Source: a phage
Sequence record: PZ452598.1
Reading direction: 5' to 3' (one strand)
DNA length: 64,000 nucleotides
Shown here: positions 12,214-42,056 of the stretch, piece by piece
Layout: each line of letters begins with the position of its first letter
Position numbering within the stretch: the first letter of the stretch is position 1
Notes under the pieces: generated by a model
What the model saw: the letters and a program-made list of their open reading frames with translations, nothing else
Told to the model about the DNA's origin: nothing
The model's database searches: none
Translations under genes and position numbers: made by a program

Positions 12214-12530
12214 AAGTCCTCAACTTGAAAATCGTCTTTAAACAATCGGTTAACTATATGAGCTATTATATCACCATGACACGGCTTTGGTTTACATGTG
12301 CATCCTAGCCTCATTCCACGTAAAGGCTCTAAATGTGCTTTAGTTATTTCTCCGGATTTAATTCGACGTATAAAATCTTTTTTGAATAATTCAATGGCAG
12401 CCTCCCGGCTGCCAGCATCTTTACCGACGTAATTTCCCCAAAATGTACCGCGGTGAATATTAACATCAAAGTCGGATTTATATTTATTCACTACCCGGCA
12501 TAGACGGCCCACGCTGGAATAATTCGTCAT
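12204..12530 (-). CDS. hypothetical protein (nrdA.1 position)
   Basis: ORF track 108 aa. Confidence 0.5.
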
Positions 12531-12759
12531 ATTGTTTTTCCGTTAAAACAGTAATATCGTAGTAACAGTCAGAAGAAGTTTTAACTGTGGAAATTTTATT
12601 ATCAAAATACTCACGAGTCATTTTATGAGTATAGTATTTTTTACCATAAATGGTAATAGGCTGTTCTGGTCCTGGAACTTCTAACTCGCTTGGGTTAGGA
12701 AGTGTAAAAAGAACTACACCAGAAGTATCTTTAAATCGTAAAATCATATATCCTCGCAA
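12484..12759 (-). CDS. hypothetical protein (nrdA.2 position)
   Basis: ORF track 91 aa. Confidence 0.5.
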
Positions 12760-12767
12760 TAATAAAA

Positions 12768-13079
12768 TTACACCGCCATCTTTCCTTTAATAGGAGGGTG
12801 TGATACATAGTTGTTAAGAACGAAATCTTTAGGCCTAAGTTTAAGAACATATTTTAATTGTTCTTTAGTAGAAAGATATCGGAATTTATAAGGTAGACCA
12901 CTTATTACCAGCTCACAAAGCTCTTTAGGTTCACGCCTCAAAATTTCTTTACATTGTTCTACGTGATTCATATAGATATGAGTATTACCACCAGAAAATA
13001 TCAAATCCCCTGGAATAAGATTACACATCTTAGCTACAATATGAACTAACGTAGCATATGACGCAATATTAAACGGTAG
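12768..13079 (-). CDS. td: thymidylate synthase, exon 2
   Basis: ORF track 12768..13082; its initial AUG is the last 3 nt of the intron; exon starts CUACCG (LPFNIAS...). Confidence 0.9.
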
Positions 13080-14095: not shown

Positions 14096-15237
<1,142 letters not shown>

Positions 15238-15293
15238 TTAATTGAAAACGAATGCTTACTTGGATAATTTCAATGACATACATAATATTTTCC

Positions 15294-15536
15294 TCAAACA
15301 GACTTTTTCACAATTTTCCAATCAGCTTTAAACTGCTCGACGTCAGAATGGTAAATCCAAAATCCTGCGCTTTCTCCGTCTTCATAAAGAGGACATCCAT
15401 CGCATTCATCTTCCCATCCCATATCACGTAAAAGATGTTCAGCTTTTTCAACAAGTTCAGAATCTTTACCGATGATATTAAAATACCATTTACCTCTAAC
15501 TTCTAAATCTTTGATGCTCTGGCGTTGTAATCTCAT
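15294..15536 (-). CDS. hypothetical protein (frd.1 position)
   Basis: ORF track 80 aa. Confidence 0.5.
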   Translation of the reverse strand: MRLQRQSIKDLEVRGKWYFNIIGKDSELVEKAEHLLRDMGWEDECDGCPLYEDGESAGFWIYHSDVEQFKADWKIVKKSV

Positions 15537-15645
15537 TTTATTCTCCTTAGCAAGCTTTAATCAAAAGATATAAACAGACCAACATAACTGCTGCCATAAT
15601 ATAAGGTGCGAACATTTTCTTTTCTCCATTAGTTTTGATAGGGTA

Positions 15646-15675
15646 ATAGTATCACACTACTACCCTGATGTAAAC
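15646..15675 (-). promoter_or_regulatory. early promoter-like element: GTTTAC, 18-bp spacer, TACTAT
   Basis: minus strand; -35 overlaps stop of ORF 15675..16076. Confidence 0.45.
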
Positions 15676-16076
15676 TACTTTTTGAAAGTTTTTCGCAAAA
15701 GTTCAATGATTTCATCTACATTGTTTTCGTCAACAATGCAGTGAATTTTTGTTACGCCAGAAACCTTGTCTTTGACTTCATCTTCTTCAGAAGTCGGTTC
15801 TTTATATTCGCGGAAACAATAAAACTCTTCTTCACTAAGTTCAAAATAATCATCACCCATACCATCATCATTATAGATTTCACCATTAGCACAAATGATT
15901 TCGGTTACATAATCAAAGCCATCTAAACTTGATATTGATTTAACTTCAAACCAACCGCCATTTTCTTGAATGATGCCGACCATACTAGCATTTGATGAAC
16001 TAATATCAATGAAAGATTTAATACGATGTGGATTTAACTCGTATTTTTTGCCGATTTCCATTTTGATTTTCCTCAT
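15675..16076 (-). CDS. hypothetical acidic protein (frd.2 position)
   Basis: ORF track 133 aa. Confidence 0.5.
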   Translation of the reverse strand: MRKIKMEIGKKYELNPHRIKSFIDISSSNASMVGIIQENGGWFEVKSISSLDGFDYVTEIICANGEIYNDDGMGDDYFELSEEEFYCFREYKEPTSEEDEVKDKVSGVTKIHCIVDENNVDEIIELLRKTFKK

Positions 16077-16106
16077 TTTAATAGGGGCTTGATAGCCCCT
16101 TGATAA

Positions 16107-16334
16107 TTATTGTTCAATCAGTCCCATGTAAAATTCTGCGTCTTCAGAATCCATGCCATCACAATATTCATTAGCCATAAAGCGGGTGAGGTCTTCAAGA
16201 GGACCTTCAATAACGATTTGAATACTCCAAAACTTAGAATCTTGCACGCTTGTGATACTAAGTTCAGGATAACGATTACGAATAATCTCTTCAATATATT
16301 CAAAATCAACGATGTCAATATCAACTTTAGCCAT
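16107..16334 (-). CDS. hypothetical protein (frd.3 position)
   Basis: ORF track 75 aa. Confidence 0.5.
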
Positions 16335-16377
16335 ATTATTTTCCTCTTTAATTATTAGCAGTATTGCCGATAGTTGT

Positions 16378-16407
16378 ATAGTACCATAAAGCTTTATGCT
16401 TGTAAAC
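16378..16407 (-). promoter_or_regulatory. early promoter-like element with A/T-rich upstream tract
   Basis: member of repeated promoter-leader cassette, upstream of ORF 16107..16334. Confidence 0.5.
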
Positions 16408-16438
16408 CGTTTTGTGAAAAAATTTTTAAAATAAAAAA

Positions 16439-16457
16439 GGGGACCTCTAGGGTCCCC
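16439..16457 (-). terminator. rho-independent terminator downstream of gene 32
   Basis: hairpin GGGGACC-CUAGA-GGUCCCC then U-run on minus strand, about 20 nt past gene 32 stop. Confidence 0.6.
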
Positions 16458-16479
16458 AATTAATTAGTAATATAATCTA

Positions 16480-17385
16480 TTAAAGGTCATTCAAAAGGTC
16501 ATCCAGGTCCGTGTCATCAGCACTAGATGAACTACCAGAGCTTGAGCTCATAAAATCATCTTCAGTTTTTGTATTGAAGTCATCAACATTGAATGCATCC
16601 AAATCATCAGCAACTTTATCAGCTTTCTTAGCAGCAGTTGCAGCAGCACCGCCCATCACAGCAGTTCCCATAACTTGACCGAATTTAGTATTAAGTTCTT
16701 CAAACGATTTGAATTTATCTTTAGAAGTCATTTCAGAAAGGTCAACCATTTGTTCGAACAGTTCTTTCTGGAAAGATTCATCGTCAATGTTTGGAATCGC
16801 AGATTGATTCAGGAATTTAGATTCATCGTAGTTACTAAATCCAGAAACTTGTTTAACTTTCAGTACAAAGTTAGCACCTTCCCACGGACAAGTTACATCA
16901 ACTGGAGTTTCACCCATTTCAACATCAACCGCAATCATTGCATTGATTTTATCCCAGATTTTCTTACCGAAACGGTATTTAAATACTTTACCTTCGTTTT
17001 CTGGAGCAGCTGGGTCTTTTACTACAAGAATGTTAGCCCAGTAAGAAGTTTTACGTTTAACAAGACTGTACTCTTTATTGTCAGTGTTGTATAGATCATT
17101 TTTACTGATGTATTGACATACTGGGCAAGAATCGTAATCACCATGGGTAGATGAACATGTTTCAATATACCATTTACCATTTTTCTTGAAACCGTGATTT
17201 ACAAGAATTGCGAATGGTGCTTGTTCATCATTTTTAGACGGAAGAAAACGAATTACTGCTTGACCGTTACCCGCATTATCGAGTTTCAGTTTCCACTCGC
17301 CTTTATCTTCAGAAGAAAAACCTTTATTGCCATTCAGTTTAGCCATTTGTGCAGCGAGTTCAGCAGTAGATTTACGTTTAAACAT
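16480..17385 (-). CDS. 32: gp32 single-stranded DNA-binding protein (301 aa)
   Basis: ORF track 301 aa; acidic Ser/Asp-rich C-terminus; recognised as T4 gp32. Confidence 0.95.
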
Positions 17386-17450
17386 TTTTATTTCCTTTTT
17401 AATTTAATTTAATTAACAGTTGGTGCTATGACACTTTACCTCATAGCTGG
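17386..17450 (-). promoter_or_regulatory. gene 32 mRNA leader / translational operator (UUAAA repeats, pseudoknot region)
   Basis: minus strand reads ...GUGUCAUAGCACCAACUGUUAAUUAAAUUAAAUUAAAAAGGAAAUAAAAAUG; known gp32 autoregulation site. Confidence 0.7.
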
Positions 17451-18073
17451 CATAATTCGCAATACTCTGGGTCTTCGAGAGGTATCCAACCTGAGTTGAA
17501 ATACTTTACCATCGATTTAGCAGTTGTATCAGTTATATTTATATTACCTTTAACTCTTCGCCATCCAGGAGTTTTACCGTACAGATTAGAGGATAATAAT
17601 AACACATAATTCTCGTAAGCAATATGAGATAATTTCCAAGACTCTATATTAGCTCGTGATGTTTTCCAAGGTCTAAAATCGTCACGGTTCATATAATTAG
17701 CCAATCTCATATGCTCTCTAACTTCCGGGTCTTTGGCTGGATGAGTTTCACCACTCACACCAAATCCACCACCAGCATATACCAGATTAAAATAGTCTGG
17801 ATTATCTCTGGCATTTACTTCAAGTTGGTATTTTCGTTCTGCTTCAATAACATCCAAGTCATCATCAATTTGAATTATTTTAACGCTCGGTTTTTGAAGC
17901 ATTAGCGCATTCAAAAATCTTTTTTGTTTACATGAGCTCCAGTATTCCTTTCCGGAAGAGTCATATATTATTCCGTTCTCAAATGAGCAATTTAATTTAC
18001 TACCGATATAGTAGTATGGCGGAGTCTTATTTTTGACACGGTCTTCAAATGTAAACCAATATACTATATTCAT
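17441..18073 (-). CDS. segG: GIY-YIG homing endonuclease-like protein (210 aa)
   Basis: ORF track 210 aa; GIY-YIG-like YYYIGSK motif; between 59 and 32 as T4 segG. Confidence 0.65.
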   Translation of the reverse strand: MNIVYWFTFEDRVKNKTPPYYYIGSKLNCSFENGIIYDSSGKEYWSSCKQKRFLNALMLQKPSVKIIQIDDDLDVIEAERKYQLEVNARDNPDYFNLVYAGGGFGVSGETHPAKDPEVREHMRLANYMNRDDFRPWKTSRANIESWKLSHIAYENYVLLLSSNLYGKTPGWRRVKGNINITDTTAKSMVKYFNSGWIPLEDPEYCELCQL

Positions 18074-18074
18074 A

Positions 18075-18728
18075 TCAATACTTGCAAGATTTCACAGTTT
18101 CAATGAAAACATTTTTAGCTTTCTGTGAATCAATATTTAAAATTTTTCTATAAGCCTTTAACTTTATAGAATAATTATTCCAGACTAAATTATCAGTCTG
18201 TTCATCATGTTTATCAATTATATTTAAAAACGAATCAAGCAAGATAAACGTCTCAAACGAAATTATGTTCGATTGCAGAAGTTTAAAAATATAACTTGAT
18301 TGAACTTTTGGATTATACTCAAAAATTTCTTTAAAAGCAGAAACTTCAACTTTTTTACTAAAATAATAAATGTTGCGAATATCTTCTTCAAACTTAAATT
18401 TAATTTGCTTTAAGCGTCCGATATATTCACGATAAAACACAAGTGCATCAGCGTCAGAGATGTCACCAATCCAAGCATCTTGGTTAGCAACCAAATTGCT
18501 TATAAAGATTAAAGCAAGTTCCTTTAATTTATATTTTTCTGATAACTTCTGGAAAAAATACTTATCCCTTCGCTTTTGATAAGCGGCATCAGACACCCGC
18601 ATGCACCAATTATACTTAATTACATCATACTTTCCATTCATATGTTGTTTTATCATTAAGTATAATTTATAAACTGATTTACCATCAATGTATCTTTCAC
18701 CACCAGCAGGCATGCGGAGTTTAATCAT
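18075..18728 (-). CDS. 59: gp59 helicase loader (217 aa)
   Basis: ORF track 217 aa; T4 gp59 length and position. Confidence 0.9.
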   Translation of the reverse strand: MIKLRMPAGGERYIDGKSVYKLYLMIKQHMNGKYDVIKYNWCMRVSDAAYQKRRDKYFFQKLSEKYKLKELALIFISNLVANQDAWIGDISDADALVFYREYIGRLKQIKFKFEEDIRNIYYFSKKVEVSAFKEIFEYNPKVQSSYIFKLLQSNIISFETFILLDSFLNIIDKHDEQTDNLVWNNYSIKLKAYRKILNIDSQKAKNVFIETVKSCKY

Positions 18729-19063
18729 AGTAGAAAATCTAATGTATTAGTTTTTTCACAACGAACAACAGAAGGACGTAAAAGATTTTCGTCAATAGCT
18801 TCTGACTGAATTTTTTCAATTATACCCGAAGGAATAAATTTAGCAAATTGAGTTTCAGGAATAGAATTTTCTTCTAAGAATGCTGTTGTAGCTTCAAGAT
18901 AACTCATTCCAAACTCTTCTACCATTTTTTCAATAATAAATCCATTTTCTTGGCGGTCAAGAAGCTTTGCTATTTCATCCTTTTCTTTCTTAATTGAAAG
19001 TTCTTTTTCTGAAAGACCGGTCTCATCGACCGGACGAATATCATTTAGAGAAAACTGTGTCAT
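18725..19063 (-). CDS. 33: gp33 late transcription co-activator (112 aa)
   Basis: ORF track 115 aa trimmed to MTQFSLND... Confidence 0.8.
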   Translation of the reverse strand: MTQFSLNDIRPVDETGLSEKELSIKKEKDEIAKLLDRQENGFIIEKMVEEFGMSYLEATTAFLEENSIPETQFAKFIPSGIIEKIQSEAIDENLLRPSVVRCEKTNTLDFLL

Positions 19064-19310
19064 AAAGTTCAACTACCTCTTCAGTTTCAGCTTCAAACAC
19101 ATCACGGTTATCTTTATGATACAAAGCTAATAGACGATTAAACATCTTACCATCAACGCCAAGTTCATCTTTAGCACGAATTCGAATATCTTTAATCAGT
19201 TCATTATAACCGGAAATTTTCAGTTTATGATCAGATGCTTCTTTAATAAATTTAGCCAAGTCTTCGCCATGGATAGCTTCATCAAATTCAACCATTTCTT
19301 TTTTAGCCAT
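19041..19310 (-). CDS. dsbA: DsbA double-stranded DNA-binding protein (89 aa)
   Basis: ORF track 89 aa; position between rnh and 33. Confidence 0.8.
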   Translation of the reverse strand: MAKKEMVEFDEAIHGEDLAKFIKEASDHKLKISGYNELIKDIRIRAKDELGVDGKMFNRLLALYHKDNRDVFEAETEEVVELYDTVFSK

Positions 19311-19318
19311 TATTCACC

Positions 19319-20236
19319 TCAAAATTCATTAATGCTATTAGTTAATTTAGAAAGACCCGCTTTTACAAAATATGAATAAATTTTGCCACGCGGTGGTAAT
19401 TTATATGAATTATAGTAATTCACAATGTTTGAAGCAATATTATCAGGAATATAATCAAAATCAATTAGAACTAAATTTTCTTTATAACGATTATATTCAG
19501 ATTCAGTGAGAAGCACCTTAGCTTGCTCACGGTCATTAGCAATAGCTTCAACGATTGAAGTTTTCATTGAAGGAGTTCGTTCACCTTCAACTCTGGTAAA
19601 CCAAAAGTCAGATCGTACTTTAACTGAAGCAACGTTATCCTTTTTGTCGCCTTTAAGGATTTTAGTCATACAGTCAATTTCAGCAGAACCGCTTTTAATT
19701 TTAACCCATTTCTTATGCATCGGAGACCATTGCTTAACATTTGGATATTTGTGAAGCTGAGTAAAGTCACCATCTGACGAAATGATTAAAATCTTATGTC
19801 CTTCTAAAGAGAACTTTTTAACAAGAACAGCAATGTGGTCATCTGCTTCATACTTATCAATATCCATAACAATGTATGGCATATAAGCTTTCAATTCATC
19901 TATAACTTTATGGCTGGATTCAAAATAACCTTCCCAGTCCCAAGTAGATTCTTCTCGTGCTTTTCCACGGTTTTTCTTATAATAATAAGCGAAATCACGA
20001 CGCCAATATCCAGATTTCGCGTTATCAATACACAGTACAATTTTAGTGTATCCAAGCGTTTTTGCTTTTTTGACATTAAACTTAATTGAGTTCAATATCA
20101 AATGACGAACCATTGATAAATTAATTTTTTCTTTATCTGGGAAGTTTACCAAAGCAGTTGAAAGCGCAATTTGACTAAAGTCAATTAAGCAGATTCCTTC
20201 TTTGTAATCTTCATCCAACATCATTTCTAAATCCAT
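19319..20236 (-). CDS. rnh: RNase H / 5'-3' exonuclease (305 aa)
   Basis: ORF track 310 aa trimmed to MDLEMMLDEDY...; FEN-family nuclease. Confidence 0.9.
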   Translation of the reverse strand: MDLEMMLDEDYKEGICLIDFSQIALSTALVNFPDKEKINLSMVRHLILNSIKFNVKKAKTLGYTKIVLCIDNAKSGYWRRDFAYYYKKNRGKAREESTWDWEGYFESSHKVIDELKAYMPYIVMDIDKYEADDHIAVLVKKFSLEGHKILIISSDGDFTQLHKYPNVKQWSPMHKKWVKIKSGSAEIDCMTKILKGDKKDNVASVKVRSDFWFTRVEGERTPSMKTSIVEAIANDREQAKVLLTESEYNRYKENLVLIDFDYIPDNIASNIVNYYNSYKLPPRGKIYSYFVKAGLSKLTNSINEF

Positions 20237-20265
20237 ATGAACCTCGTTCAATTAGTGAGATTTCT

Positions 20266-20295
20266 ATTATATACCATCCAAATCTTAAAGTAAAC
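20266..20295 (-). promoter_or_regulatory. early promoter-like element: GTTTAC, spacer, TATAAT
   Basis: minus strand upstream of rnh, in the rnh/34 divergent intergenic region. Confidence 0.45.
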
Positions 20296-20298
20296 AAG

Positions 20299-20306
20299 TA
20301 TAAATA
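20299..20306 (+). promoter_or_regulatory. late promoter TATAAATA
   Basis: exact T4 late consensus 35 nt upstream of gene 34 ATG. Confidence 0.6.
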
Positions 20307-20340
20307 CTTATTATTGAAAACACAATAGGAGCCCGGGAGA

Positions 20341-23300
20341 ATGGCCGAGATTAAAAGAAAGTTCAGAGCAGAAGATGGTCTGGACGCAGGTGGTGATAAA
20401 ATAATCAACGTAGCTTTAGCTGATCGTACCGTAGGAACTGACGGTGTTAACGTTGATTACTTAATTCAAGAAAACACAGTTCAACAGTATGATCCAACTC
20501 GTGGATATTTAAAAGATTTTGTAATCATTTATGATAACCGCTTTTGGGCTGCTATAAATGATATTCCAAAACCAGCAGGAGCTTTTAATAGCGGACGCTG
20601 GAGAGCATTACGTACCGATGCTAACTGGATTACGGTTTCATCTGGTTCATATCAATTAAAATCTGGTGAAGCAATTTCGGTTAACACCGCAGCTGGAAAT
20701 GACATCACGTTTACTTTACCATCTTCTCCAATTGATGGTGATACTATCGTTCTCCAAGATATTGGAGGAAAACCTGGAGTTAACCAAGTTTTAATTGTAG
20801 CTCCAGTACAAAGTATTGTAAACTTTAGAGGTGAACAGGTACGTTCAGTACTAATGACTCATCCAAAGTCACAGCTAGTTTTAATTTTTAGTAATCGTCT
20901 GTGGCAAATGTATGTTGCTGATTATAGTAGAGAAGCTATAGTTGTAACACCAGCGAATACTTATCAAGCGCAATCCAACGATTTTATCGTACGTAGATTT
21001 ACTTCTGCTGCACCAATTAATGTCAAACTTCCAAGATTTGCTAATCATGGCGATATTATTAATTTCGTCGATTTAGATAAACTAAATCCGCTTTATCATA
21101 CAATTGTTACTACATACGATGAAACGACTTCAGTACAAGAAGTTGGAACTCATTCCATTGAAGGCCGTACATCGATTGACGGTTTCTTGATGTTTGATGA
21201 TAATGAGAAATTATGGAGACTGTTTGACGGGGATAGTAAAGCGCGTTTACGTATCATAACGACTAATTCAAACATTCGTCCAAATGAAGAAGTTATGGTA
21301 TTTGGTGCGAATAACGGAACAACTCAAACAATTGAGCTTAAGCTTCCAACTAATATTTCTGTTGGTGATACTGTTAAAATTTCCATGAATTACATGAGAA
21401 AAGGACAAACAGTTAAAATCAAAGCTGCTGATGAAGATAAAATTGCTTCTTCAGTTCAATTGCTGCAATTCCCAAAACGCTCAGAATATCCACCTGAAGC
21501 TGAATGGGTTACAGTTCAAGAATTAGTTTTTAACGGTGAAACTAATTATGTTCCAGTTTTGGAGCTTGCTTACATAGAAGATTCTGATGGAAAATATTGG
21601 GTTGTACAGCAAAACGTTCCAACTGTAGAAAGAGTAGATTCTTTAAATGATTCTACTAGAGCAAGATTAGGCGTAATTGCTTTAGCTACACAAGCTCAAG
21701 CTAATGTCGATTTAGAAAATTCTCCACAAAAAGAATTAGCAATTACTCCAGAAACGTTAGCTAATCGTACTGCTACAGAAACTCGCAGAGGTATTGCAAG
21801 AATAGCAACTACTGCTCAAGTGAATCAGAACACCACATTCTCTTTTGCTGATGATATTATCATCACTCCTAAAAAGCTGAATGAAAGAACTGCTACAGAA
21901 ACTCGTAGAGGTGTCGCAGAAATTGCTACGCAGCAAGAAACTAATGCAGGAACCGATGATACTACAATCATCACTCCTAAAAAGCTTCAAGCTCGTCAAG
22001 GTTCTGAATCATTATCTGGTATTGTAACCTTTGTATCTACTGCAGGTGCTACTCCAGCTTCTAGCCGTGAATTAAATGGTACGAATGTTTATAATAAAAA
22101 CACTGATAATTTAGTTGTTTCACCTAAAGCTTTGGATCAGTATAAAGCTACTCCAACACAGCAAGGTGCAGTAATTTTAGCAGTTGAAAGTGAAGTAATT
22201 GCTGGACAAAGTCAGCAAGGATGGGCAAATGCTGTTGTAACGCCAGAAACGTTACATAAAAAGACATCAACTGATGGAAGAATTGGTTTAATTGAAATTG
22301 CTACGCAAAGTGAAGTTAATACAGGAACTGATTATACTCGTGCAGTCACTCCTAAAACTTTAAATGACCGTAGAGCAACTGAAAGTTTAAGTGGTATAGC
22401 TGAAATTGCTACACAAGTTGAATTCGACGCAGGCGTCGACGATACTCGTATCTCTACACCATTAAAAATTAAAACCAGATTTAATAGTACTGATCGTACT
22501 TCTGTTGTTGCTCTATCTGGATTAGTTGAATCAGGAACTCTCTGGGACCATTATACACTTAATATTCTTGAAGCAAATGAGACACAACGTGGTACACTTC
22601 GTGTAGCTACGCAGGTCGAAGCTGCTGCGGGAACATTAGATAATGTTTTAATAACTCCTAAAAAGCTTTTAGGTACTAAATCTACTGAAGCGCAAGAGGG
22701 TGTTATTAAAGTTGCAACTCAGTCTGAAACTGTGACTGGAACGTCAGCAAATACTGCTGTATCTCCAAAAAATTTAAAATGGATTGCGCAGAGTGAACCT
22801 ACTTGGGCAGCTACTACTGCAATAAGAGGTTTTGTTAAAACTTCATCTGGTTCAATTACATTCGTTGGTAATGATACAGTCGGTTCTACCCAAGATTTAG
22901 AACTGTATGAGAAAAATAGCTATGCGGTATCACCATATGAATTAAACCGTGTATTAGCAAATTATTTGCCACTAAAAGCAAAAGCTGCTGATACAAATTT
23001 ATTGGATGGTCTAGATTCATCTCAGTTCATTCGTAGGGATATTGCACAGACGGTTAATGGTTCACTAACCTTAACCCAACAAACGAATCTGAGTGCCCCT
23101 CTTGTATCATCTAGTACTGGTGAATTTGGTGGTTCATTGGCCGCTAATAGAACATTTACCATCCGTAATACAGGAGCCCCGACTAGTATCGTTTTCGAAA
23201 AAGGTCCTGCATCCGGGGCAAATCCTGCACAGTCAATGAGTATTCGTGTATGGGGTAACCAATTTGGCGGCGGTAGTGATACGACCCGTTCGACAGTGTT

Positions 23301-24210
23301 TGAAGTTGGCGATGACACATCTCATCACTTTTATTCTCAACGTAATAAAGACGGTAATATAGCGTTTAACATTAATGGTACTGTAATGCCAATAAACATT
23401 AATGCTTCCGGTTTGATGAATGTGAATGGCACTGCAACATTCGGTCGTTCAGTTACAGCCAATGGTGAATTCATCAGCAAGTCTGCAAATGCTTTTAGAG
23501 CAATAAACGGTGATTACGGATTCTTTATTCGTAATGATGCCTCTAATACCTATTTTTTGCTCACTGCAGCCGGTGATCAGACTGGTGGTTTTAATGGATT
23601 ACGCCCATTATTAATTAATAATCAATCCGGTCAGATTACAATTGGTGAAGGCTTAATCATTGCCAAAGGTGTTACTATAAATTCAGGCGGTTTAACTGTT
23701 AACTCGAGAATTCGTTCTCAGGGTACTAAAACATCTGATTTATATACCCGTGCGCCAACATCTGATACTGTAGGATTCTGGTCAATCGATATTAATGATT
23801 CAGCCACTTATAACCAGTTCCCGGGTTATTTTAAAATGGTTGAAAAAACTAATGAAGTGACTGGGCTTCCATACTTAGAACGTGGCGAAGAAGTTAAATC
23901 TCCTGGTACACTGACTCAGTTTGGTAACACACTTGATTCGCTTTACCAAGATTGGATTACTTATCCAACGACGCCAGAAGCGCGTACCACTCGCTGGACA
24001 CGTACATGGCAGAAAACCAAAAACTCTTGGTCAAGTTTTGTTCAGGTATTTGACGGAGGTAACCCTCCTCAACCATCTGATATCGGTGCTTTACCATCTG
24101 ATAATGCTACAATGGGGAATCTTACTATTCGTGATTTCTTGCGAATTGGTAATGTTCGCATTGTTCCTGACCCAGTGAATAAAACGGTTAAATTTGAATG
24201 GGTTGAATAA
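20341..24210 (+). CDS. 34: gp34 long tail fibre proximal subunit (1289 aa)
   Basis: ORF track 1289 aa; internal ~30-aa fibre repeats; T4 gp34 length. Confidence 0.95.
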   Translation: MAEIKRKFRAEDGLDAGGDKIINVALADRTVGTDGVNVDYLIQENTVQQYDPTRGYLKDFVIIYDNRFWAAINDIPKPAGAFNSGRWRALRTDANWITVSSGSYQLKSGEAISVNTAAGNDITFTLPSSPIDGDTIVLQDIGGKPGVNQVLIVAPVQSIVNFRGEQVRSVLMTHPKSQLVLIFSNRLWQMYVADYSREAIVVTPANTYQAQSNDFIVRRFTSAAPINVKLPRFANHGDIINFVDLDKLNPLYHTIVTTYDETTSVQEVGTHSIEGRTSIDGFLMFDDNEKLWRLFDGDSKARLRIITTNSNIRPNEEVMVFGANNGTTQTIELKLPTNISVGDTVKISMNYMRKGQTVKIKAADEDKIASSVQLLQFPKRSEYPPEAEWVTVQELVFNGETNYVPVLELAYIEDSDGKYWVVQQNVPTVERVDSLNDSTRARLGVIALATQAQANVDLENSPQKELAITPETLANRTATETRRGIARIATTAQVNQNTTFSFADDIIITPKKLNERTATETRRGVAEIATQQETNAGTDDTTIITPKKLQARQGSESLSGIVTFVSTAGATPASSRELNGTNVYNKNTDNLVVSPKALDQYKATPTQQGAVILAVESEVIAGQSQQGWANAVVTPETLHKKTSTDGRIGLIEIATQSEVNTGTDYTRAVTPKTLNDRRATESLSGIAEIATQVEFDAGVDDTRISTPLKIKTRFNSTDRTSVVALSGLVESGTLWDHYTLNILEANETQRGTLRVATQVEAAAGTLDNVLITPKKLLGTKSTEAQEGVIKVATQSETVTGTSANTAVSPKNLKWIAQSEPTWAATTAIRGFVKTSSGSITFVGNDTVGSTQDLELYEKNSYAVSPYELNRVLANYLPLKAKAADTNLLDGLDSSQFIRRDIAQTVNGSLTLTQQTNLSAPLVSSSTGEFGGSLAANRTFTIRNTGAPTSIVFEKGPASGANPAQSMSIRVWGNQFGGGSDTTRSTVFEVGDDTSHHFYSQRNKDGNIAFNINGTVMPININASGLMNVNGTATFGRSVTANGEFISKSANAFRAINGDYGFFIRNDASNTYFLLTAAGDQTGGFNGLRPLLINNQSGQITIGEGLIIAKGVTINSGGLTVNSRIRSQGTKTSDLYTRAPTSDTVGFWSIDINDSATYNQFPGYFKMVEKTNEVTGLPYLERGEEVKSPGTLTQFGNTLDSLYQDWITYPTTPEARTTRWTRTWQKTKNSWSSFVQVFDGGNPPQPSDIGALPSDNATMGNLTIRDFLRIGNVRIVPDPVNKTVKFEWVE

Positions 24211-24218
24211 GAGGTATT

Positions 24219-25337
24219 ATGGAAAAATTTATGGCAGAGTTTGGACAAGGATATGTCCAAACGCCATTTTTATCGGAAAGTAATTCAGTAAGATATAAAA
24301 TAAGTATAGCGGGTTCTTGCCCGCTTTCTACAGCAGGACCATCATATGTTAAATTTCAGGATAATCCTGTAGGAAGTCAAACATTTAGCGCAGGCCTTCA
24401 TTTAAGAGTTTTTGACCCTTCCACCGGAGCATTAGTTGATAGTAAGTCATATGCTTTTTCGACTTCAAATGATACTACATCAGCTGCTTTTGTTAGTTTC
24501 ATGAATTCTTTGACGAATAATCGAATTGTTGCTATATTAACTAGTGGAAAGGTTAATTTTCCTCCTGAAGTAGTATCTTGGTTAAGAACCGCCGGAACGT
24601 CTGCCTTTCCATCTGATTCTATATTGTCAAGATTTGACGTATCATATGCTGCTTTTTATACTTCTTCTAAAAGAGCTATCGCATTAGAGCATGTTAAACT
24701 GAGTAATAGAAAAAGCACAGATGATTATCAAACTATTTTAGATGTTGTATTTGACAGTTTAGAAGATGTAGGAGCTACCGGGTTTCCAAGAAGAACGTAT
24801 GAAAGTGTTGAGCAATTCATGTCGGCAGTTGGTGGAACTAATAACGAAATTGCGAGATTGCCAACTTCAGCTGCTATAAGTAAATTATCTGATTATAATT
24901 TAATTCCTGGAGATGTTCTTTATCTTAAAGCTCAGTTATATGCTGATGCTGATTTACTTGCTCTTGGAACTACAAATATATCTATCCGTTTTTATAATGC
25001 ATCTAACGGATATATTTCTTCAACACAAGCTGAATTTACTGGGCAAGCTGGGTCATGGGAATTAAAGGAAGATTATGTAGTTGTTCCAGAAAACGCAGTA
25101 GGATTTACGATATACGCACAGAGAACTGCACAAGCTGGCCAAGGTGGCATGAGAAATTTAAGCTTTTCTGAAGTATCAAGAAATGGCGGCATTTCGAAAC
25201 CTGCTGAATTTGGCGTCAATGGTATTCGTGTTAATTATATCTGCGAATCCGCTTCACCTCCGGATATAATGGTACTTCCTACGCAAGCATCGTCTAAAAC
25301 TGGTAAAGTGTTTGGGCAAGAATTTAGAGAAGTTTAA
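24219..25337 (+). CDS. 35: gp35 long tail fibre hinge (372 aa)
   Basis: ORF track 372 aa. Confidence 0.9.
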   Translation: MEKFMAEFGQGYVQTPFLSESNSVRYKISIAGSCPLSTAGPSYVKFQDNPVGSQTFSAGLHLRVFDPSTGALVDSKSYAFSTSNDTTSAAFVSFMNSLTNNRIVAILTSGKVNFPPEVVSWLRTAGTSAFPSDSILSRFDVSYAAFYTSSKRAIALEHVKLSNRKSTDDYQTILDVVFDSLEDVGATGFPRRTYESVEQFMSAVGGTNNEIARLPTSAAISKLSDYNLIPGDVLYLKAQLYADADLLALGTTNISIRFYNASNGYISSTQAEFTGQAGSWELKEDYVVVPENAVGFTIYAQRTAQAGQGGMRNLSFSEVSRNGGISKPAEFGVNGIRVNYICESASPPDIMVLPTQASSKTGKVFGQEFREV

Positions 25338-25342
25338 ATTGA

Positions 25343-25368
25343 GGGAGCCTTCGGGTTCCCTTTTTCTT
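25343..25368 (+). terminator. hairpin with UUCG tetraloop followed by U-run
   Basis: GGGAGCC-UUCG-GGUUCCC then UUUUUCUUU, directly after gene 35 stop. Confidence 0.55.
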
Positions 25369-25376
25369 TATAAATA
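25369..25376 (+). promoter_or_regulatory. late promoter TATAAATA
   Basis: exact consensus 24 nt upstream of gene 36 ATG. Confidence 0.6.
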
Positions 25377-25399
25377 CTATTAAAATAAAGGGGCATACA

Positions 25400-26065
25400 A
25401 TGGCTGATTTAAAAGTAGGTTCAACAACTGGAGGCTCTGTCATTTGGCATCAAGGAAATTTTCCATTGAATCCAGCCGGTGACGATGTACTCTATAAATC
25501 ATTTAAAATATATTCAGAATATAACAAACCACAAGCTGCTGATAACGATTTCGTTTCTAAAGCTAATGGTGGTACTTATGCATCAAAGGTAACATTTAAC
25601 GCTGGCATTCAAGTCCCATATGCTCCAAACATCATGAGCCCATGCGGGATTTATGGGGGTAACGGTGATGGTGCTACTTTTGATAAAGCAAATATCGATA
25701 TTGTTTCATGGTATGGCGTAGGATTTAAATCGTCATTTGGTTCAACAGGCCGAACTGTTGTAATTAATACACGCAATGGTGATATTAACACAAAAGGTGT
25801 TGTGTCGGCAGCTGGTCAAGTAAGAAGTGGTGCGGCTGCTCCTATAGCAGCGAATGACCTTACTAGAAAGGACTATGTTGATGGAGCAATAAATACTGTT
25901 ACTGCAAATGCAAACTCTAGGGTGCTACGGTCTGGTGACACCATGACAGGTAATTTAACAGCGCCAAACTTTTTCTCGCAGAATCCTGCATCTCAACCCT
26001 CACACGTTCCACGATTTGACCAAATCGTAATTAAGGATTCTGTTCAAGATTTCGGCTATTATTAA
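25400..26065 (+). CDS. 36: gp36 long tail fibre distal connector (221 aa)
   Basis: ORF track 221 aa. Confidence 0.9.
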
Positions 26066-26073
26066 GAGGACTT

Positions 26074-29000
26074 ATGGCTACTTTAAAACAAATACAATTT
26101 AAAAGAAGCAAAATCGCAGGAACACGTCCTGCTGCTTCAGTATTAGCCGAAGGTGAATTGGCTATAAACTTAAAAGATAGAACAATTTTTACTAAAGATG
26201 ATTCAGGAAATATCATCGATCTAGGTTTTGCTAAAGGCGGGCAAGTTGATGGCAACGTTACTATTAACGGACTTTTGAGATTAAATGGCGATTATGTACA
26301 AACAGGTGGAATGACTGTAAACGGACCCATTGGTTCTACTGATGGCGTCACTGCAAAAATTTTCAGATCTACACAGGGTTCATTTTATGCAAGAGCAACA
26401 AACGATACTTCAAATGCCCATTTATGGTTTGAAAATGCCGATGGCACTGAACGTGGCGTTATATATGCTCGCCCTCAAACTACAACTGACGGTGAAATAC
26501 GCCTTAGGGTTAGACAAGGAACAGGAAGCACTGCCAACAGTGAATTCTATTTCCGCTCTATAAATGGAGGCGAATTTCAGGCTAACCGTATTTTAGCATC
26601 AGATTCGTTAGTAACAAAACGCATTGCGGTTGATACCGTTATTCATGATGCCAAAGCATTTGGACAATATGATTCTCACTCTTTGGTTAATTATGTTTAT
26701 CCTGGAACCGGTGAAACAAATGGTGTAAACTATCTTCGTAAAGTTCGCGCTAAGTCCGGTGGTACAATTTATCATGAAATTGTTACTGCACAAACAGGCC
26801 TGGCTGATGAAGTTTCTTGGTGGTCTGGTGATACACCAGTATTTAAACTATACGGTATTCGTGACGATGGCAGAATGATTATCCGTAATAGCCTTGCATT
26901 AGGTACATTCACTACAAATTTCCCGTCTAGTGATTATGGCAACGTCGGTGTAATGGGCGATAAGTATCTTGTTCTCGGCGACACTGTAACTGGCTTGTCA
27001 TACAAAAAAACTGGTGTATTTGATCTAGTTGGCGGTGGATATTCTGTTGCTTCTATTACTCCTGACAGTTTCCGTAGTACTCGTAAAGGTATATTTGGTC
27101 GTTCTGAGGACCAAGGCGCAACTTGGATAATGCCTGGTACAAATGCTGCTCTCTTGTCTGTTCAAACACAAGCTGATAATAACAATGCTGGAGACGGACA
27201 AACCCATATCGGGTACAATGCTGGCGGTAAAATGAACCACTATTTCCGTGGTACAGGTCAGATGAATATCAATACCCAACAAGGTATGGAAATTAACCCG
27301 GGTATTTTGAAATTGGTAACTGGCTCTAATAATGTACAATTTTACGCTGACGGAACTATTTCTTCCATTCAACCTATTAAATTAGATAACGAGATATTTT
27401 TAACTAAATCTAATAATACTGCGGGTCTTAAATTTGGAGCTCCTAGCCAAGTTGATGGCACAAGGACTATCCAATGGAACGGTGGTACTCGCGAAGGACA
27501 GAATAAAAACTATGTGATTATTAAAGCATGGGGTAACTCATTTAATGCCACTGGTGATAGATCTCGCGAAACGGTTTTCCAAGTATCAGATAGTCAAGGA
27601 TATTATTTTTATGCTCATCGTAAAGCTCCAACCGGCGACGAAACTATTGGACGTATTGAAGCTCAATTTGCTGGGGATGTTTATGCTAAAGGTATTATTG
27701 CCAACGGAAATTTTAGAGTTGTTGGATCAAGCGCTTTAGCCGGCAATGTTACTATGTCTAACGGTTTGTTTGTCCAAGGTGGTTCTTCTATTACTGGACA
27801 AGTTAAAATTGGCGGAACAGCAAACGCACTGAGAATTTGGAACGCTGAATATGGTGCTATTTTCCGTCGTTCGGAAAGTAACTTTTATATTATTCCAACC
27901 AATCAAAATGAAGGAGAAAGTGGAGACATTCACAGCTCTTTGAGACCTGTGAGAATAGGATTAAACGATGGCATGGTTGGGTTAGGAAGAGATTCTTTTA
28001 TAGTAGATCAAAATAATGCTTTAACTACGATAAACAGTAACTCTCGCATTAATGCCAACTTTAGAATGCAATTGGGGCAGTCGGCATACATTGATGCAGA
28101 ATGTACTGATGCTGTTCGCCCGGCGGGTGCAGGTTCATTTGCTTCCCAGAATAATGAAGACGTCCGTGCGCCGTTCTATATGAATATTGATAGAACTGAT
28201 GCTAGTGCATATGTTCCTATTTTGAAACAACGTTATGTTCAAGGCAATGGCTGCTATTCATTAGGGACTTTAATTAATAATGGTAATTTCCGAGTTCATT
28301 ACCATGGCGGCGGAGATAACGGTTCTACAGGTCCACAGACTGCTGATTTTGGATGGGAATTTATTAAAAACGGTGATTTTATTTCACCTCGCGATTTAAT
28401 AGCAGGCAAAGTCAGATTTGATAGAACTGGTAATATCACTGGTGGTTCTGGTAATTTTGCTAACTTAAACAGTACAATTGAATCACTTAAAACTGATATC
28501 ATGTCGAGTTACCCAATTGGTGCTCCGATTCCTTGGCCGAGTGATTCAGTTCCTGCTGGATTTGCTTTGATGGAAGGTCAGACCTTTGATAAGTCCGCAT
28601 ATCCAAAGTTAGCTGTTGCATATCCTAGCGGTGTTATTCCAGATATGCGCGGGCAAACTATCAAGGGTAAACCAAGTGGTCGTGCTGTTTTGAGCGCTGA
28701 GGCAGATGGTGTTAAGGCTCATAGCCATAGTGCATCGGCTTCAAGTACTGACTTAGGTACTAAAACCACATCAAGCTTTGACTATGGTACGAAGGGAACT
28801 AACAGTACGGGTGGACACACTCACTCTGGTAGTGGTTCTACTAGCACAAATGGTGAGCACAGCCACTACATCGAGGCATGGAATGGTACTGGTGTAGGTG
28901 GTAATAAGATGTCATCATATGCCATATCATACAGGGCGGGTGGGAGTAACACTAATGCAGCAGGGAACCACAGTCACACTTTCTCTTTTGGGACTAGCAG

Positions 29001-37486: not shown

Positions 37487-37502
37487 AAGGGCCGAAGCCC
37501 TT
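37487..37502 (-). promoter_or_regulatory. UUCG-tetraloop hairpin overlapping the rII-fusion stop codon, followed by SD and ATG of next ORF
   Basis: AAGGGC-UUCG-GCCCUU then AAGGAAAAUUAUG; no U-run. Confidence 0.4.
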
Positions 37503-38928
37503 ATTTAAATTGTTCAGTAACGTCTTCAACTACTTCATATTGGCAGGTACGCATTTTAGCATCGTTGTAATCAATCGGAATTGATACTACATCGCGAGGA
37601 TGAACTTTAACTTTTACAACTCGGCTGGTTGAACTACCAAAGTGACGAATATAAGATTTAGAACACACATGCAAACCACGAGAACAAGTTTGTGTATCAT
37701 CGTCATTCACACGAGTACGTGGCATTTTAACTACTTTACCCGGACTGTTATCAAAGGTGTTTGAGTGACAGTCAAAGTAATTGCTGCGAACTACTTTCCA
37801 AGCATAGAAGTAACCATCTTCTGTAATTTCAATATCGTTTGCTACCAAGAAATCAAAGAGTCGAGATACCGCTTTTTGGCTTGGGTTTTCCAACAGATTT
37901 TCCAAGAACGGAAAATAAAATTCAAAGTTTTCGCCTTTTTCCATCGAGTCAAGAATACGATCAACCAAACCAGACCGCAATTCAATATTTTGATAGAACA
38001 AGCTTCCACCTTCAATTCGAACATCGCCGGAAATATATTTTTCAACAGCACGACGAACATTAATTTTTTGTGCCGCTTCTTCCAACTTATCCGCTACAAG
38101 CAGATTAAGAATTTCCTGGAAGTTTGAATGAGTATTAGGAGTTGCGTTATAAGTTACGCCATCAACAGTAATTGAAATGAATTTTTTAGATGCATTCCAA
38201 ATAATGTCAGATTTAGCAACTGGAGCAATAACTGCATCGCTATTAACTTTAACTGTAATATCACCGCTAATAGTCATCAAAATCCGGAAAATAATCATTT
38301 CGCGGTCAAGACCATTAATGATAGCCAAATCTTTGAACGGTCGCATGATATAAGAAACTTCATAAGCAAAGTTTCTAAAGTCTTTTTCTTCAACTGGAAC
38401 TACGATTTCAATACCAGTTTTATCATCTGGACCCATTTCTTTTACGAATGTAGGTTTAATCTGTGGACCATCACCATCCATGTAAGCTACATAACCACGA
38501 ATTTCACCTTTATGATACGAAGTAATACTAAACGTATCAGTATAACTAAACGGAGATTTAGAACCTAAACCAAATCCGCCAATAAAGTCATTAGATTCAG
38601 CTTTAGATGAACTGAAGTATGAATTATACAACCCAGGAGAATTATCATCACCTTGAATATCAAAATCACTCATACCCGGACCAAAATCTCGACAAACAAA
38701 TCGTGGGTCTAAACGTCCAGGAACTTGTATGATAAATTTTTCAGGATTTCCATTAAGTGCATGAGCATCAATCATGTTAGTAATCAATTCACGGACTACT
38801 GCGCGAATCTTGTTTGTATACAAATCAGATGACAGAATTTTAAATACTTTAGGAGATGCTGTGATGCTAAATGCTTTTGATTTAGAACCATTACCAAGAA
38901 TTGTTTCTTTTTCAGTGGTGATAATCAT
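37501..38928 (-). CDS. rIIA/rIIB: rIIA–rIIB in-frame fusion protein (475 aa)
   Basis: ORF track 475 aa; N-terminal GHKL ATPase motifs as in rIIA, C-terminal part recognised as rIIB-like; locus about 1.7 kb shorter than separate rIIA (725 aa) + rIIB (312 aa). Confidence 0.7.
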
Positions 38929-39196: not shown

Positions 39197-39541
39197 CTAC
39201 TGGCTCATCCATTCTTTACGAAGGTCAGCATTATCTCCCATGAGCATTTCAAAAAGCTCTTTCCAGTTCTCAGGAAGTTTAACAACATCATATACTGGGT
39301 TTTGAATCATCTCACGATATTCAGATTTTTCCAAAGAGCCAAGTCCCTTAATATAACGGATGCTATGTTTAGGTAGAGCATCTTTGGCACTCTCATATTC
39401 AGCGACTGTATAAAACCATTCTTGTTTTTTACCGACCTGAGCGATGATTACAGGAGTTTTGACAAAGCGAATTCGTCCTTGCTCAAACAATTCTGGCCAA
39501 TTACTAAAAAATCCGAGCAGAGAAGGATAAATAGAACCTAA
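39197..39541 (-). CDS. 60: gene 60 topoisomerase II small subunit, codons 47–160 (after the bypass)
   Basis: track ORF 39197..39490 extended upstream in frame to the landing site; resumes UUA GGU UCU... Confidence 0.92.
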   Translation of the reverse strand, partial: LGSIYPSLLGFFSNWPELFEQGRIRFVKTPVIIAQVGKKQEWFYTVAEYESAKDALPKHSIRYIKGLGSLEKSEYREMIQNPVYDVVKLPENWKELFEMLMGDNADLRKEWMSQ

Positions 39542-39591
39542 TCCAATAATCTCTTAATTATGAGGTATTTCTATAGATAGCCCGAAGGCTA
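39542..39591 (-). other. 60: gene 60 50-nt translational bypass (hop) element
   Basis: take-off GGA 39594..39592, UAG stop 39591..39589, stem-loop with UUCG loop, landing GGA 39544..39542. Confidence 0.93.
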
Positions 39592-39729
39592 TCCATCGTG
39601 ATCTGCGTCTGTCATAATAGCGACATTCGCATAGTTCATTGAAGAGGATTTAATAGAACGACGAACATTGTTCTGCAATTTATATTTTTTCATATCAACG
39701 CTAGAAGAATCAATTTTTACAAATTTCAT
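39592..39729 (-). CDS. 60: gene 60 topoisomerase II small subunit, codons 1–46 (before the bypass)
   Basis: MKFVKIDSSSVDMKKYKL...MTDADHDG then UAG; track ORF 39589..39780 has an upstream extension. Confidence 0.92.
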
Positions 39730-40528
39730 TATACACCTCATAGAACTTTTCATCAGGAATCCAACCGCGTTTAAATTCATTAAATGCTCGGCCGAATAAT
39801 TTTGAATTCACAGTTATATTATTAACTGATTTCCATTTAGCAACTCCCGTTCGTTTATAATGATCGGGGTCATATTTCGTGACGTACCATTCATATAAAT
39901 TTGGTATTAATTTTACAGCCTCTGGATTTGTCGCTGATTTATTATACCATGGTTTCGCTTTTTCAAGTTCAGCTGCTTTTGCAGTAGCAGCAACAGTATT
40001 TCCAATACCAACTAATTTTTCAGTTTTAATGCGTGGATCATTAACATGAAGACGAAAAACTTCGCCCTTTTCATTTTTAAAGCATGTCATGCCTTTAATT
40101 CCAGGAAGCTTAACACCTTTATTAACACCGCACCATTCCTTTGGGTTAAATGATCCTTTAATTAATAAGGCGCATTTACCCGATTTAATACTTCTCATTA
40201 AAACTTTATCTTTCATAAAGTTTTTTGACCATTCAGATACTGCTCTTTGATGGTAAATTCTAGCAATTTCATATAATTTACTAGAACGTAAATATTTTTC
40301 AGTGTTTAACATTCTATTCATCGCATATGCCATTTCACGATTACGATGAATTTTATATAGTAGAAAATGTGCTAAAAAGTGTTCACGAAAAGTCAGTTTC
40401 ACCAAATTTTCTTTATCATCAGAACCTCCCATTGATCTTGGAAGGATATGATGAATTTCACCCTTAAATTTAGAAACGCGGGTTTTACCCCGCACTATTA
40501 AGTCATTATAGATTTTTTCGTAATTCAC
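39710..40528 (-). CDS. mobA: free-standing HNH homing endonuclease (272 aa)
   Basis: ORF track 272 aa; HNH motif HHILPRSMGGSDDKENLVKLTFREH; overlaps 39 end and 60 start. Confidence 0.8.
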   Translation of the reverse strand: MNYEKIYNDLIVRGKTRVSKFKGEIHHILPRSMGGSDDKENLVKLTFREHFLAHFLLYKIHRNREMAYAMNRMLNTEKYLRSSKLYEIARIYHQRAVSEWSKNFMKDKVLMRSIKSGKCALLIKGSFNPKEWCGVNKGVKLPGIKGMTCFKNEKGEVFRLHVNDPRIKTEKLVGIGNTVAATAKAAELEKAKPWYNKSATNPEAVKLIPNLYEWYVTKYDPDHYKRTGVAKWKSVNNITVNSKLFGRAFNEFKRGWIPDEKFYEVYNEICKN

Positions 40529-42056
40529 CTACTGTTATCCATTTACCATTAATCTGTACTTCATCATTTTCATTTACGATAATTGTATCGCCATTTAGCT
40601 CGAAAGTAAACCACTCGCCATCTTCTTTTTCTTCAAACGCTTTTTCACCGAGAACTAGACCAGTGATTGCGCAAATATCAAATAGTTCTTTGTTTTTAAG
40701 CATATCTGCATAAGACATACCCCAACTGTTGAGAACTTTACCACGCAATGGATAACCACCGTGAAGTTCTTTATCACGAACATCAATAAGATATCCGATA
40801 GCCGAATCACCCTCAGTCAAGAAAAGAGTAGTATCAGCATCTTTACCGCAAAGATTCGCTTTGATATGTTTATGAACCTTAGCTTTAGAAGCCTTTTTAG
40901 CTGCTTTAGTTTCTGCTGCTTTTTCTGCCGCCAATTTACGAGCCAAAGCAGCTTCAATAATCGGCATTAGAATTGCTTCATTATTTAGAATAGCACGTGA
41001 AATCTTTTTAGCATCAAGTTGAATATGACTACGAATTTCGCCAAATGGAGAAGTCAAACGCTCTTTAGTTTGAGAATCAAATCGCATGTTTTTCATATCA
41101 CGAACAAACATAACGATAGTCAAACATTCTTTGACACGTGCTTTAGTCACATCAATTTTGAACTTACGTTTGATTTGTGGAATAAGGTCTTCACAAATAT
41201 CATCCATAGCGCAGTCAATGTGATGGCCACCATTCTTAGTATGAATGTTATTGACGTATGTTAATTGACGAAAACCATCCGGTGAACGACCAACCGCAAT
41301 AGAACAATTTTCTTGCTCTTGAACAATAGCATGTTCATCATACTGCCGTGCATATTTCTTAAAATTGCCCTGAACCTTTTTACCATTAAAGGTAAATTGA
41401 ATATCAGGATAAACTACAGCAAGTGTCTGGAGACGATCCAGTGTAATGTCAAGATAAACTTGGGACAGCTCATTAGTTTCAAATGACATAAAATCAGGAA
41501 TGAAAGTAACACGAGTTCCTTTCCATTTTCCAGGAATATCTTCCCATGATTTATTTTCCATGCCATTTGAACAACGAACTACAATATTATTTTGACCGTC
41601 GCCAGTTTCACCGACAAACATCACAGAAAAAATGTTTGTCAAACTAGAACCAACACCGTTCATACCGCCGGTGACGCGTTCTTTATCATCACCAAAGTTA
41701 CCACCTGCTTTTGGAATAGTCCATGCGGCAACAGGACCAGGAATTTCTTCACCGGTAGGTGTTTTAACCATCGCTTGTGGAATACCGCGACCGTTATCTT
41801 CAACTGTTACTTGATTGTTTTTAATAGTAACATTAATTTTATTCGCGAATTTAAACTTAGTACGAATACCTTCATCTACTGAGTTATCGATAATTTCATC
41901 AATAAGCTTAACAAGACCAGGTACATACTGAACACTTTCCCATTTACCAAACATAAAGCGCTCATGCGTTTCATTAGCAGAAGAGCCAATGTACATGCCA
42001 CTACGCTTTTTGATATGTTCAATATCGCTCAGAATTTTAATTTCATTCTTAATCAT
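40506..42056 (-). CDS. 39: gp39 DNA topoisomerase II large subunit (ATPase)
   Basis: ORF track 517 aa, start trimmed to second Met; GyrB-like GHKL ATPase and TOPRIM. Confidence 0.92.
   Translation of the reverse strand: MIKNEIKILSDIEHIKKRSGMYIGSSANETHERFMFGKWESVQYVPGLVKLIDEIIDNSVDEGIRTKFKFANKINVTIKNNQVTVEDNGRGIPQAMVKTPTGEEIPGPVAAWTIPKAGGNFGDDKERVTGGMNGVGSSLTNIFSVMFVGETGDGQNNIVVRCSNGMENKSWEDIPGKWKGTRVTFIPDFMSFETNELSQVYLDITLDRLQTLAVVYPDIQFTFNGKKVQGNFKKYARQYDEHAIVQEQENCSIAVGRSPDGFRQLTYVNNIHTKNGGHHIDCAMDDICEDLIPQIKRKFKIDVTKARVKECLTIVMFVRDMKNMRFDSQTKERLTSPFGEIRSHIQLDAKKISRAILNNEAILMPIIEAALARKLAAEKAAETKAAKKASKAKVHKHIKANLCGKDADTTLFLTEGDSAIGYLIDVRDKELHGGYPLRGKVLNSWGMSYADMLKNKELFDICAITGLVLGEKAFEEKEDGEWFTFELNGDTIIVNENDEVQINGKWITVGELRKNL

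Follow-up and report, generated by a model that had tools for sequence, protein, structure and literature searches.

Gene 60 of bacteriophage T4 and its programmed translational bypass in a 64 kb phage sequence

A phage DNA of 64 000 nucleotides (sequence record PZ452598.1; this whole stretch is referred to as the window) carries a topoisomerase gene whose reading frame is closed by a stop codon after 46 codons and is taken up again only 50 nt further on. How a single protein could be made from such a gene is the question that the locus raises. The first-pass annotation, made from the sequence alone, had recognised the known 50 nt bypass of T4 gene 60, seen intact. This is supported by 100 % identity to T4, a matching annotation, the bypass signals and the unsplit homologs. 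The feature is most probably (probability about 0.97) gene 60 of bacteriophage T4, programmed translational bypass included, and no contrary evidence was met within the present data. The hop as such is inferred from the sequence identity with an mRNA that has been studied experimentally. The present analysis established the anatomy of the gene and its identity with T4, and showed that the joined product is colinear with unsplit homologs and that the hairpin is conserved and covaries; the ribosomal mechanism, its efficiency and the protective role against MobA were taken from the literature.

Reading frames of gene 60 and the 50-nucleotide gap

Gene 60 was located on the minus strand of the window, a strand that the first-pass annotation had not given. 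ORF1 (codons 1–46; 39592..39729) starts at the ATG at 39729, as annotated in the T4 record T4T, and is preceded by a putative Shine–Dalgarno sequence GAGG (39736..39739), 6 nt before the ATG (uaugaGGUGuauaAUG). Its translation (window 39729..39592) is MKFVKIDSSSVDMKKYKLQNNVRRSIKSSSMNYANVAIMTDADHDG, and the last codon is the take-off codon GGA for Gly46 (39594..39592). The proposed interruption of the frame by UAG after codon 46 was borne out, with the stop (39591..39589) standing directly after this GGA. The 50 nt that follow had been described as noncoding and as ending in a second GGA; both points held. The gap (39591..39542) reads UAGCCUUCGGGCUAUCUAUAGAAAUACCUCAUAAUUAAGAGAUUAUUGGA, and its landing codon (39544..39542) is the sole GGA within it. 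In T4T and in NC_000866, gene 60 is given as a two-piece joined CDS, and the misc_feature "non-coding translational bypass region in mRNA" (2803..2852) maps exactly to window 39542..39591. From 39541 the frame resumes as UUA GGU UCU, as had been claimed, and ORF2 (codons 47–160 and stop; 39197..39541) adds 114 aa to the 46 of ORF1 before the stop at 39199..39197, which gives the 160 aa of the predicted product. A TOPRIM_C match (Pfam, 6.4e-08) was found in ORF2. Around the junction the predicted gp60 reads ...DADHDG-LGSIYPSLLGFF..., and the predicted junction-spanning peptide is ...AIMTDADHDG-LGSIYPSLLGFFSNWPELFEQGR; the Gly46–Leu47 junction peptide has already been reported for T4 gp60.

Stops close all three frames of the gap after 0, 10 and 11 codons, as determined by script, and in frame 0 another UAG lies six codons past the first. 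The 50 nt are 2 mod 3, that is, the frame changes across the gap. Because 50 is not a multiple of three and every frame is closed, neither readthrough nor a single frameshift can join ORF1 and ORF2. A UAG followed by a strong hairpin does superficially resemble the stimulators of readthrough or frameshifting, but no single event of this kind reaches ORF2, and conventional recoding (readthrough, +1/−1 frameshifting) or an error (pseudogene, assembly artefact) is given a negligible probability. An assembly error is excluded by more than 25 independent deposits of the identical sequence, and ORF2, with 99 % DNA identity to phage T2 and an identical protein, is not decaying as a pseudogene would.

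The mechanical ORF list splits gene 60 into 39589..39780 and 39197..39490, just as the first-pass annotation had stated. The former begins at an in-frame ATG (39780) within mobA, 17 codons upstream of the true start of ORF1, which explains why the ORF track has 63 aa in place of 46 codons. The start of the latter is an internal TTG that follows the landing site by 17 codons. A promoter scan found promoter-like sites only at the level expected by chance, and terminator-like sites were not found in a terminator scan.

Identity with phage T4 and the joined protein

The 1.5 kb around gene 60 and mobA were 100.0 % identical to 12 T4 and near-identical records (T4 isolates, T4T, RB55 and RB59) and 99.0 % identical to the old reference NC_000866.4. 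Chance is no issue, since the gene 60 stretch is 100 % identical to phage T4 records. The element described here and the T4 gene 60 bypass share sequence, annotation and 46-aa nascent peptide, and no difference between them was seen. By full-window BLAST the whole window corresponds to T4T 130482..168755 joined to about 1527..27261, and its differences from T4T over these 64 kb are seven substitutions and one lesion in rII.

The substitutions are at window positions 15505, 27323, 33981, 44160, 52422, 60669 and 61158. They were scored against T4T only, and some may be peculiarities of T4T. In position order the changes are frd.1 S11L, gp37 D417G, gp52 N253D (in the partner subunit of topoisomerase II), a synonymous change in motB.1, SegF D195G, SegA G102R, and TGG here for the TGA stop of the beta-glucosyltransferase gene of T4T.

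Compared with three T4 references, the rII locus (37501..38928, minus strand) is rearranged; its lesions lie at about 38296 and at 38268..38274. A 1-nt deletion in rIIA codon 211 changes GAAATTGAT to GAAATGAT and is followed by eight out-of-frame codons (MIIFRILM). Thirty nucleotides later, a 1699-bp deletion at a 7-bp ACTATTA microhomology joins about T4T 168755 to about 1527 and takes what remains of rIIA, the gap between the cistrons and the first 55 or so codons of rIIB. By itself, the 1699-bp deletion would not keep the frame; with 1700 nt lost in all (2 mod 3), rIIB(56–312) comes to lie in frame with rIIA(1–210), and a fusion ORF of 475 aa is predicted, composed of rIIA(1–210), 8 aa and rIIB(56–312). 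The lesion looks like a laboratory rII deletion or a frameshift-compensated genotype that follows an r1589-like logic. In one piece it was absent from all records of the phage collection, and a literature search for a named allele gave no match; a paper on T4 evolution describes other rII deletions.

Unsplit homologs allow the joined product to be compared with a protein made without any gap. Phages T2 and RB32 have a single unsplit gene of 605 aa, with 596/605 identities to gp39 plus the joined gp60. In the DNA alignment an exact 50-column gap falls in T2 and RB32 at the bypass site; where the gap sits here, both read GAT GGT CTA GGA AGC (D-G-L-G-S). Their protein runs across the junction as ...DADHDGLGSIYP..., colinear over Gly46|Leu47 (...DADHDG|LGSIYP...), and the sole extra material relative to it is a block of 71 aa, made up of the C-terminal tail of gp39 and the N-terminal 28 aa of gp60. 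About 460 related phage records align only from query position 1069 (window 39532) onward. The unsplit genes (T2, RB32, RB14, RB51 and the approximately 460 T4-like records) encode the same protein, colinear across the junction, but are without mobA, the 71 aa of split tails and the 50-nt gap. These unsplit topoisomerase genes represent the empty site.

The structural data point in the same direction. Upstream, gene 39 (40506..42056, minus strand) supplies the N-terminal portion (516 aa) of the topoisomerase II large subunit, which is split, as seen from its ORF, Pfam matches (HATPase_c and DNA_gyraseB) and alignment. The joined 160 aa are equal to residues 517–676 of the T4 topoisomerase II gp39–gp60 chain 8yo3 (PDB); by its deposited name this chain is a gp39–gp60 fusion, and so it demonstrates folding of the joined sequence, not ribosome hopping. 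Alignments to the uninterrupted phage homolog 8ylu (611 aa), to eukaryotic topo II and to GyrB also span the junction, over residues approximately 29–158. The 46-aa peptide of ORF1 is identical to chain C of 5NP6, a ribosome take-off complex.

Against this background the two halves could in principle be made as separate polypeptides, with ORF1 ending at the UAG, ORF2 being initiated on its own and the products assembling non-covalently in the manner of gp39 and gp60. The gene is indeed already split by mobA into gp39 and gp60, which do assemble; several database records give the two halves as separate CDSs; and the efficiency of bypass in the literature is about 50 %, approximately half of the ribosomes making no more than the 46-aa peptide. 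In the frame of ORF2, however, the first codon of start type is the TTG 17 codons on, which lacks a Shine–Dalgarno sequence, and the 17 codons that an initiation there would leave out (LGSIYPSLLGFFSNWPE) show 100 % conservation with T2 and RB32 and carry on from the DADHDG motif of the unsplit protein with no interruption. Moreover, such a reading would give no purpose to the match between the GGA codons, to the covarying hairpin or to the conserved residues of the nascent peptide, and a single joined gp60 product was found by published protein sequencing and mass spectrometry. Separate synthesis is therefore considered very improbable, and one polypeptide joined by programmed bypass is retained as the reading of the locus.

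Bypass signals and the proposed course of the hop

All bypass signals that are listed in the literature and readable from the sequence were tested, and all were present, with the exception of the 3′ stem-loop, which was unsupported. The stem-loop GAUAGCC-UUCG-GGCUAUC, placed at the take-off site by the first-pass annotation, was found there at 39593..39576. The full take-off stem-loop (39573..39596, minus strand) has a stem of 10 bp, whose 5′ arm contains both the take-off GGA and the UAG, and a UUCG tetraloop (39583..39586) forms its cap. A 23-nt fold of the hairpin gave −11.7 kcal/mol (z = −4.16; 0/200 shuffles folded as well), and the full 10-bp stem gave −14.7 kcal/mol. Within ORF1, the nascent-peptide signal KKYKLQNNVRRSIKSSS (codons 14–30; 39640..39690) was identified from the translation and the residue list in the literature: the implicated residues Y16, Q19, V22, R24, S25, K27 and S28 are all present, as is KKYK, and Y33, M39, T40 and H44 are present further downstream. 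The 5′ stem-loop (39604..39631, minus strand) has 5 bp at its top and 4 bp below (−10.8 kcal/mol, z = −2.25), a layout in agreement with the NAR review; its window coordinates were mapped in the present analysis. Near the end of the gap a Shine–Dalgarno-like GAG (39551..39553), whose role is taken from the literature, lies 6 nt 5′ of the landing codon in a context of 78 % A+U, compared with 65 % for the whole window.

The 3′ stem-loop ("forward slippage barrier") did not fold better than shuffles (z = −1.0); Manning and Atkins describe it as unconserved. In a 141-nt fold the 3′ half of the gap was paired with ORF2, and this pairing was rejected, being unsupported by the local fold (z = −0.16) and by published probing.

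In the same stretch of RNA, removal of the 50 nt before translation was considered, either as a tiny intron or by editing, after the model of the T4 group I introns td, nrdB and nrdD. T4 self-splicing introns with homing endonucleases do occur elsewhere in the window (td and nrdB, as annotated). Between 39000 and 40700, however, no Rfam family, introns included, was matched on either strand at E ≤ 1, and at so permissive a threshold this leaves neither an intron nor a curated RNA family with support. A group I intron core (P3–P9) takes hundreds of nucleotides; the insert has 50, far below the length of any self-splicing intron, and folds to one hairpin only. According to the literature, transcription includes the 50 nt and they remain part of the mRNA, the paper that founded the subject bearing the title "A persistent untranslated sequence", and translation of the full-length mRNA in vitro gives the bypass product. 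The probability of removal at the RNA level is accordingly put at next to nothing, and the 50 nt are taken to be passed over by the ribosome during translation.

The T4 gene 60 bypass has been described by Huang et al. (1988), Weiss et al. (1990) and Agirrezabala (2017; PDB 5NP6), and the hop on this same sequence has been followed by protein sequencing, mass spectrometry, kinetics and cryo-EM. The canonical gene 60 hop is thus already known since 1988 and dissected down to a cryo-EM structure. On the published model, the ribosome would translate codons 1–46, and the nascent peptide (KKYK...; Y16, R24, Y33, M39, T40 and H44) would grip the exit tunnel, slow the ribosome and hold the peptidyl-transferase centre locked and inactive. 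Once GGA occupies the P site and UAG the A site, the UUCG-capped top of the hairpin would form in the A site and exclude RF1 and near-cognate tRNAs. EF-G would drive a pseudo-translocation, in which the peptidyl-tRNA-Gly would leave the GGA yet stay on the ribosome, and the mRNA would slide through, aided by the 5′ stem-loop, which would refold behind the ribosome. Towards the end of the gap the anti-Shine–Dalgarno sequence would pair with GAG, and one protein of 160 aa would result. The bypass of T4 gene 60 was reportedly also the subject of studies by Samatova in 2014 and Chen in 2015, the content of which is taken here from reviews and a preprint.

The mobile cassette and its relatives

The gene order is gene 39, mobA, gene 60, with the bypass in the Toprim region downstream of the mobA insertion. 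mobA (39710..40528, minus strand; annotated in T4T) is an intact ORF for an HNH homing endonuclease of 272 aa, which overlaps the start of gene 60 by 20 nt; its HNH match in Pfam is weak (7e-4, below the gathering score). By BLAST, homology to T2 was 96 % up to 40639, absent through mobA and weak (76 %) at 39638..39593; it was then broken by the 50 nt and was back at 99 % from 39532. The codons directly after the landing site (39533..39541) are synonymously recoded, TTA GGT TCT here compared with CTA GGA AGC in T2 and RB32, which includes a switch of Ser codon family. These recoded codons, followed by 99 % identity, mark the 3′ edge of cassette-derived DNA. From the breakpoints in T2 homology and the recoded codons, a block inserted or replaced relative to the unsplit T2 gene 39 was delimited at about 39533..40638 (minus strand; BLAST against T2 and protein alignment). 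It holds the C-terminal tail of gp39, mobA, the N-terminal extension of gp60, the stretch of diverged homology, the 50-nt gap and the three recoded codons. The extent of this block agrees with the published notion of a single mobile cassette made up of mobA, the split tails and the gap; the gap is part of this cassette, which is carried along with the MobA homing endonuclease, and according to the literature it protects against cleavage by MobA.

The mobA sequence of the window is identical to that of T4T and 10 other records. Compared with it, extra bases at 11 scattered single positions (mostly G) and five substitutions are found in NC_000866.4, at 40006..40412, and these differences split mobA into a "mobA pseudogene" and "ORF 60.1". 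The scattered pattern suggests that the "defective mobA plus ORF 60.1" of NC_000866 may be a matter of sequence error or quality, or a strain difference. Reviews and a 2022 preprint (Manning and Atkins) still call T4 mobA defective.

A sensitive search of the GenBank phage collection with ORF1 and the gap found the cassette in 60 phage records. The T4 clade accounts for 42 of these (at least 97.6 % identity); the others are diverged (70–81 %) and come from Salmonella S16-like, Proteus, Acinetobacter and Shewanella phages. The diverged cassettes span four other phage genera, and their hairpin is kept through compensatory changes. One representative of each diverged group (S16, Pm5461, KARL-1 and Thanatos-1) was compared together with HY01 from the T4 clade. 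All representatives keep the upstream homing endonuclease, a UAG after the take-off codon and a hairpin tip of CC-UUCG-GG or CC-UUAG-GG (UUCG in five of six lineages, UUAG in Thanatos-1), and in every one the take-off codon and the landing codon can be read by one tRNA. In the four diverged representatives the insertion point in the Toprim motif is that of T4 to within one codon, and most of these cassette types have a GAG approximately 6 nt before the landing codon; HY01, S16 and KARL-1 share the exact 6-nt spacing. The gap and its matched codons differ from the 50 nt and GGA/GGA of the window: 48 nt with GGU/GGC for take-off and landing in S16, 51 nt with GGG/GGA in Pm5461, 43 nt with GAU/GAC in KARL-1 and 52 nt with GGU/GGU in Thanatos-1.

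Pairs of the lower stem in S16, Pm5461, KARL-1 and Thanatos-1 show compensatory changes relative to T4. In an alignment of the hairpin from six lineages, the 10-bp stem was 100 % paired, with compensatory double changes in four of its ten pairs; the covariation score was reached by 0/500 shuffles. As a control, the 3′ arm was slid by 1–3 columns, upon which pairing fell to 18–43 %. On a small scale the covariation leads to the conclusion already drawn by Manning and Atkins, whose 2022 preprint describes MobA-associated bypass cassettes in other Straboviridae. A scan of viral contigs with the Toprim motif, UAG and stem start (ATGACNGAYGCNGAYNNNGAYGGNTAGCCTT) gave one match and no further diversity.

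The gap of Pm5461 (1549–1599 of the retrieved segment; 51 nt) is a multiple of three and contains no second in-frame stop. Readthrough of the UAG would therefore insert 17 aa in frame (PSGYSLTHLTNKEIIG after the UAG); such a product would not be truncated, in contrast to the T4 gap, in which every frame is closed.

In many phage records (S16, Pm5461, KARL-1, Thanatos-1 and several of the T4 clade) each half of gene 60 is entered as a CDS of its own, at times named "hypothetical protein" or with the start of ORF2 set inside the gap. Beyond the curated T4 records, mis-annotation of the bypass is systematic.

Among other systems, the T4 group I introns (td, nrdB and nrdD) and inteins solve the same problem, a selfish endonuclease cassette inside an essential gene whose product is spared. 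Introns act at the RNA level by splicing and inteins at the protein level, whereas in gene 60 removal takes place in translation. The mitochondrial "byp" elements of the yeast Magnusiomyces capitatus (81 copies in 12 genes, according to the literature) are unrelated in sequence to the T4 gap. In contrast to gene 60, they are said there to use an unused sense codon in place of a stop, to have no dedicated nascent-peptide signal and to operate in mitochondrial translation.

Whether the bypass is more than a tolerated scar is a further question, and an affirmative answer is given little credence here. The efficiency of about one half and the reported temperature dependence could tune the dosage of gp60; or else the 46-aa "stop peptide", which is abundant, could be functional in its own right. 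With a mobA ORF as intact as that found here, the cassette would be a live homing element and not a relic. Questions of dosage, stop peptide and homing have already been raised by Manning and Atkins, and none of them is specific to the window.

The first-pass annotation recognised non-canonical decoding correctly from raw sequence. The mechanical ORF track and many deposited phage annotations split gene 60, and therein lies the lesson for annotation. Among cases of programmed translational bypassing, the gene 60 hop is the founding one and also the best understood. Its occurrence here adds no new biology to a system that has shaped views on how peptidyl-tRNA, nascent chain, mRNA structure and EF-G take part in holding and releasing the reading frame.
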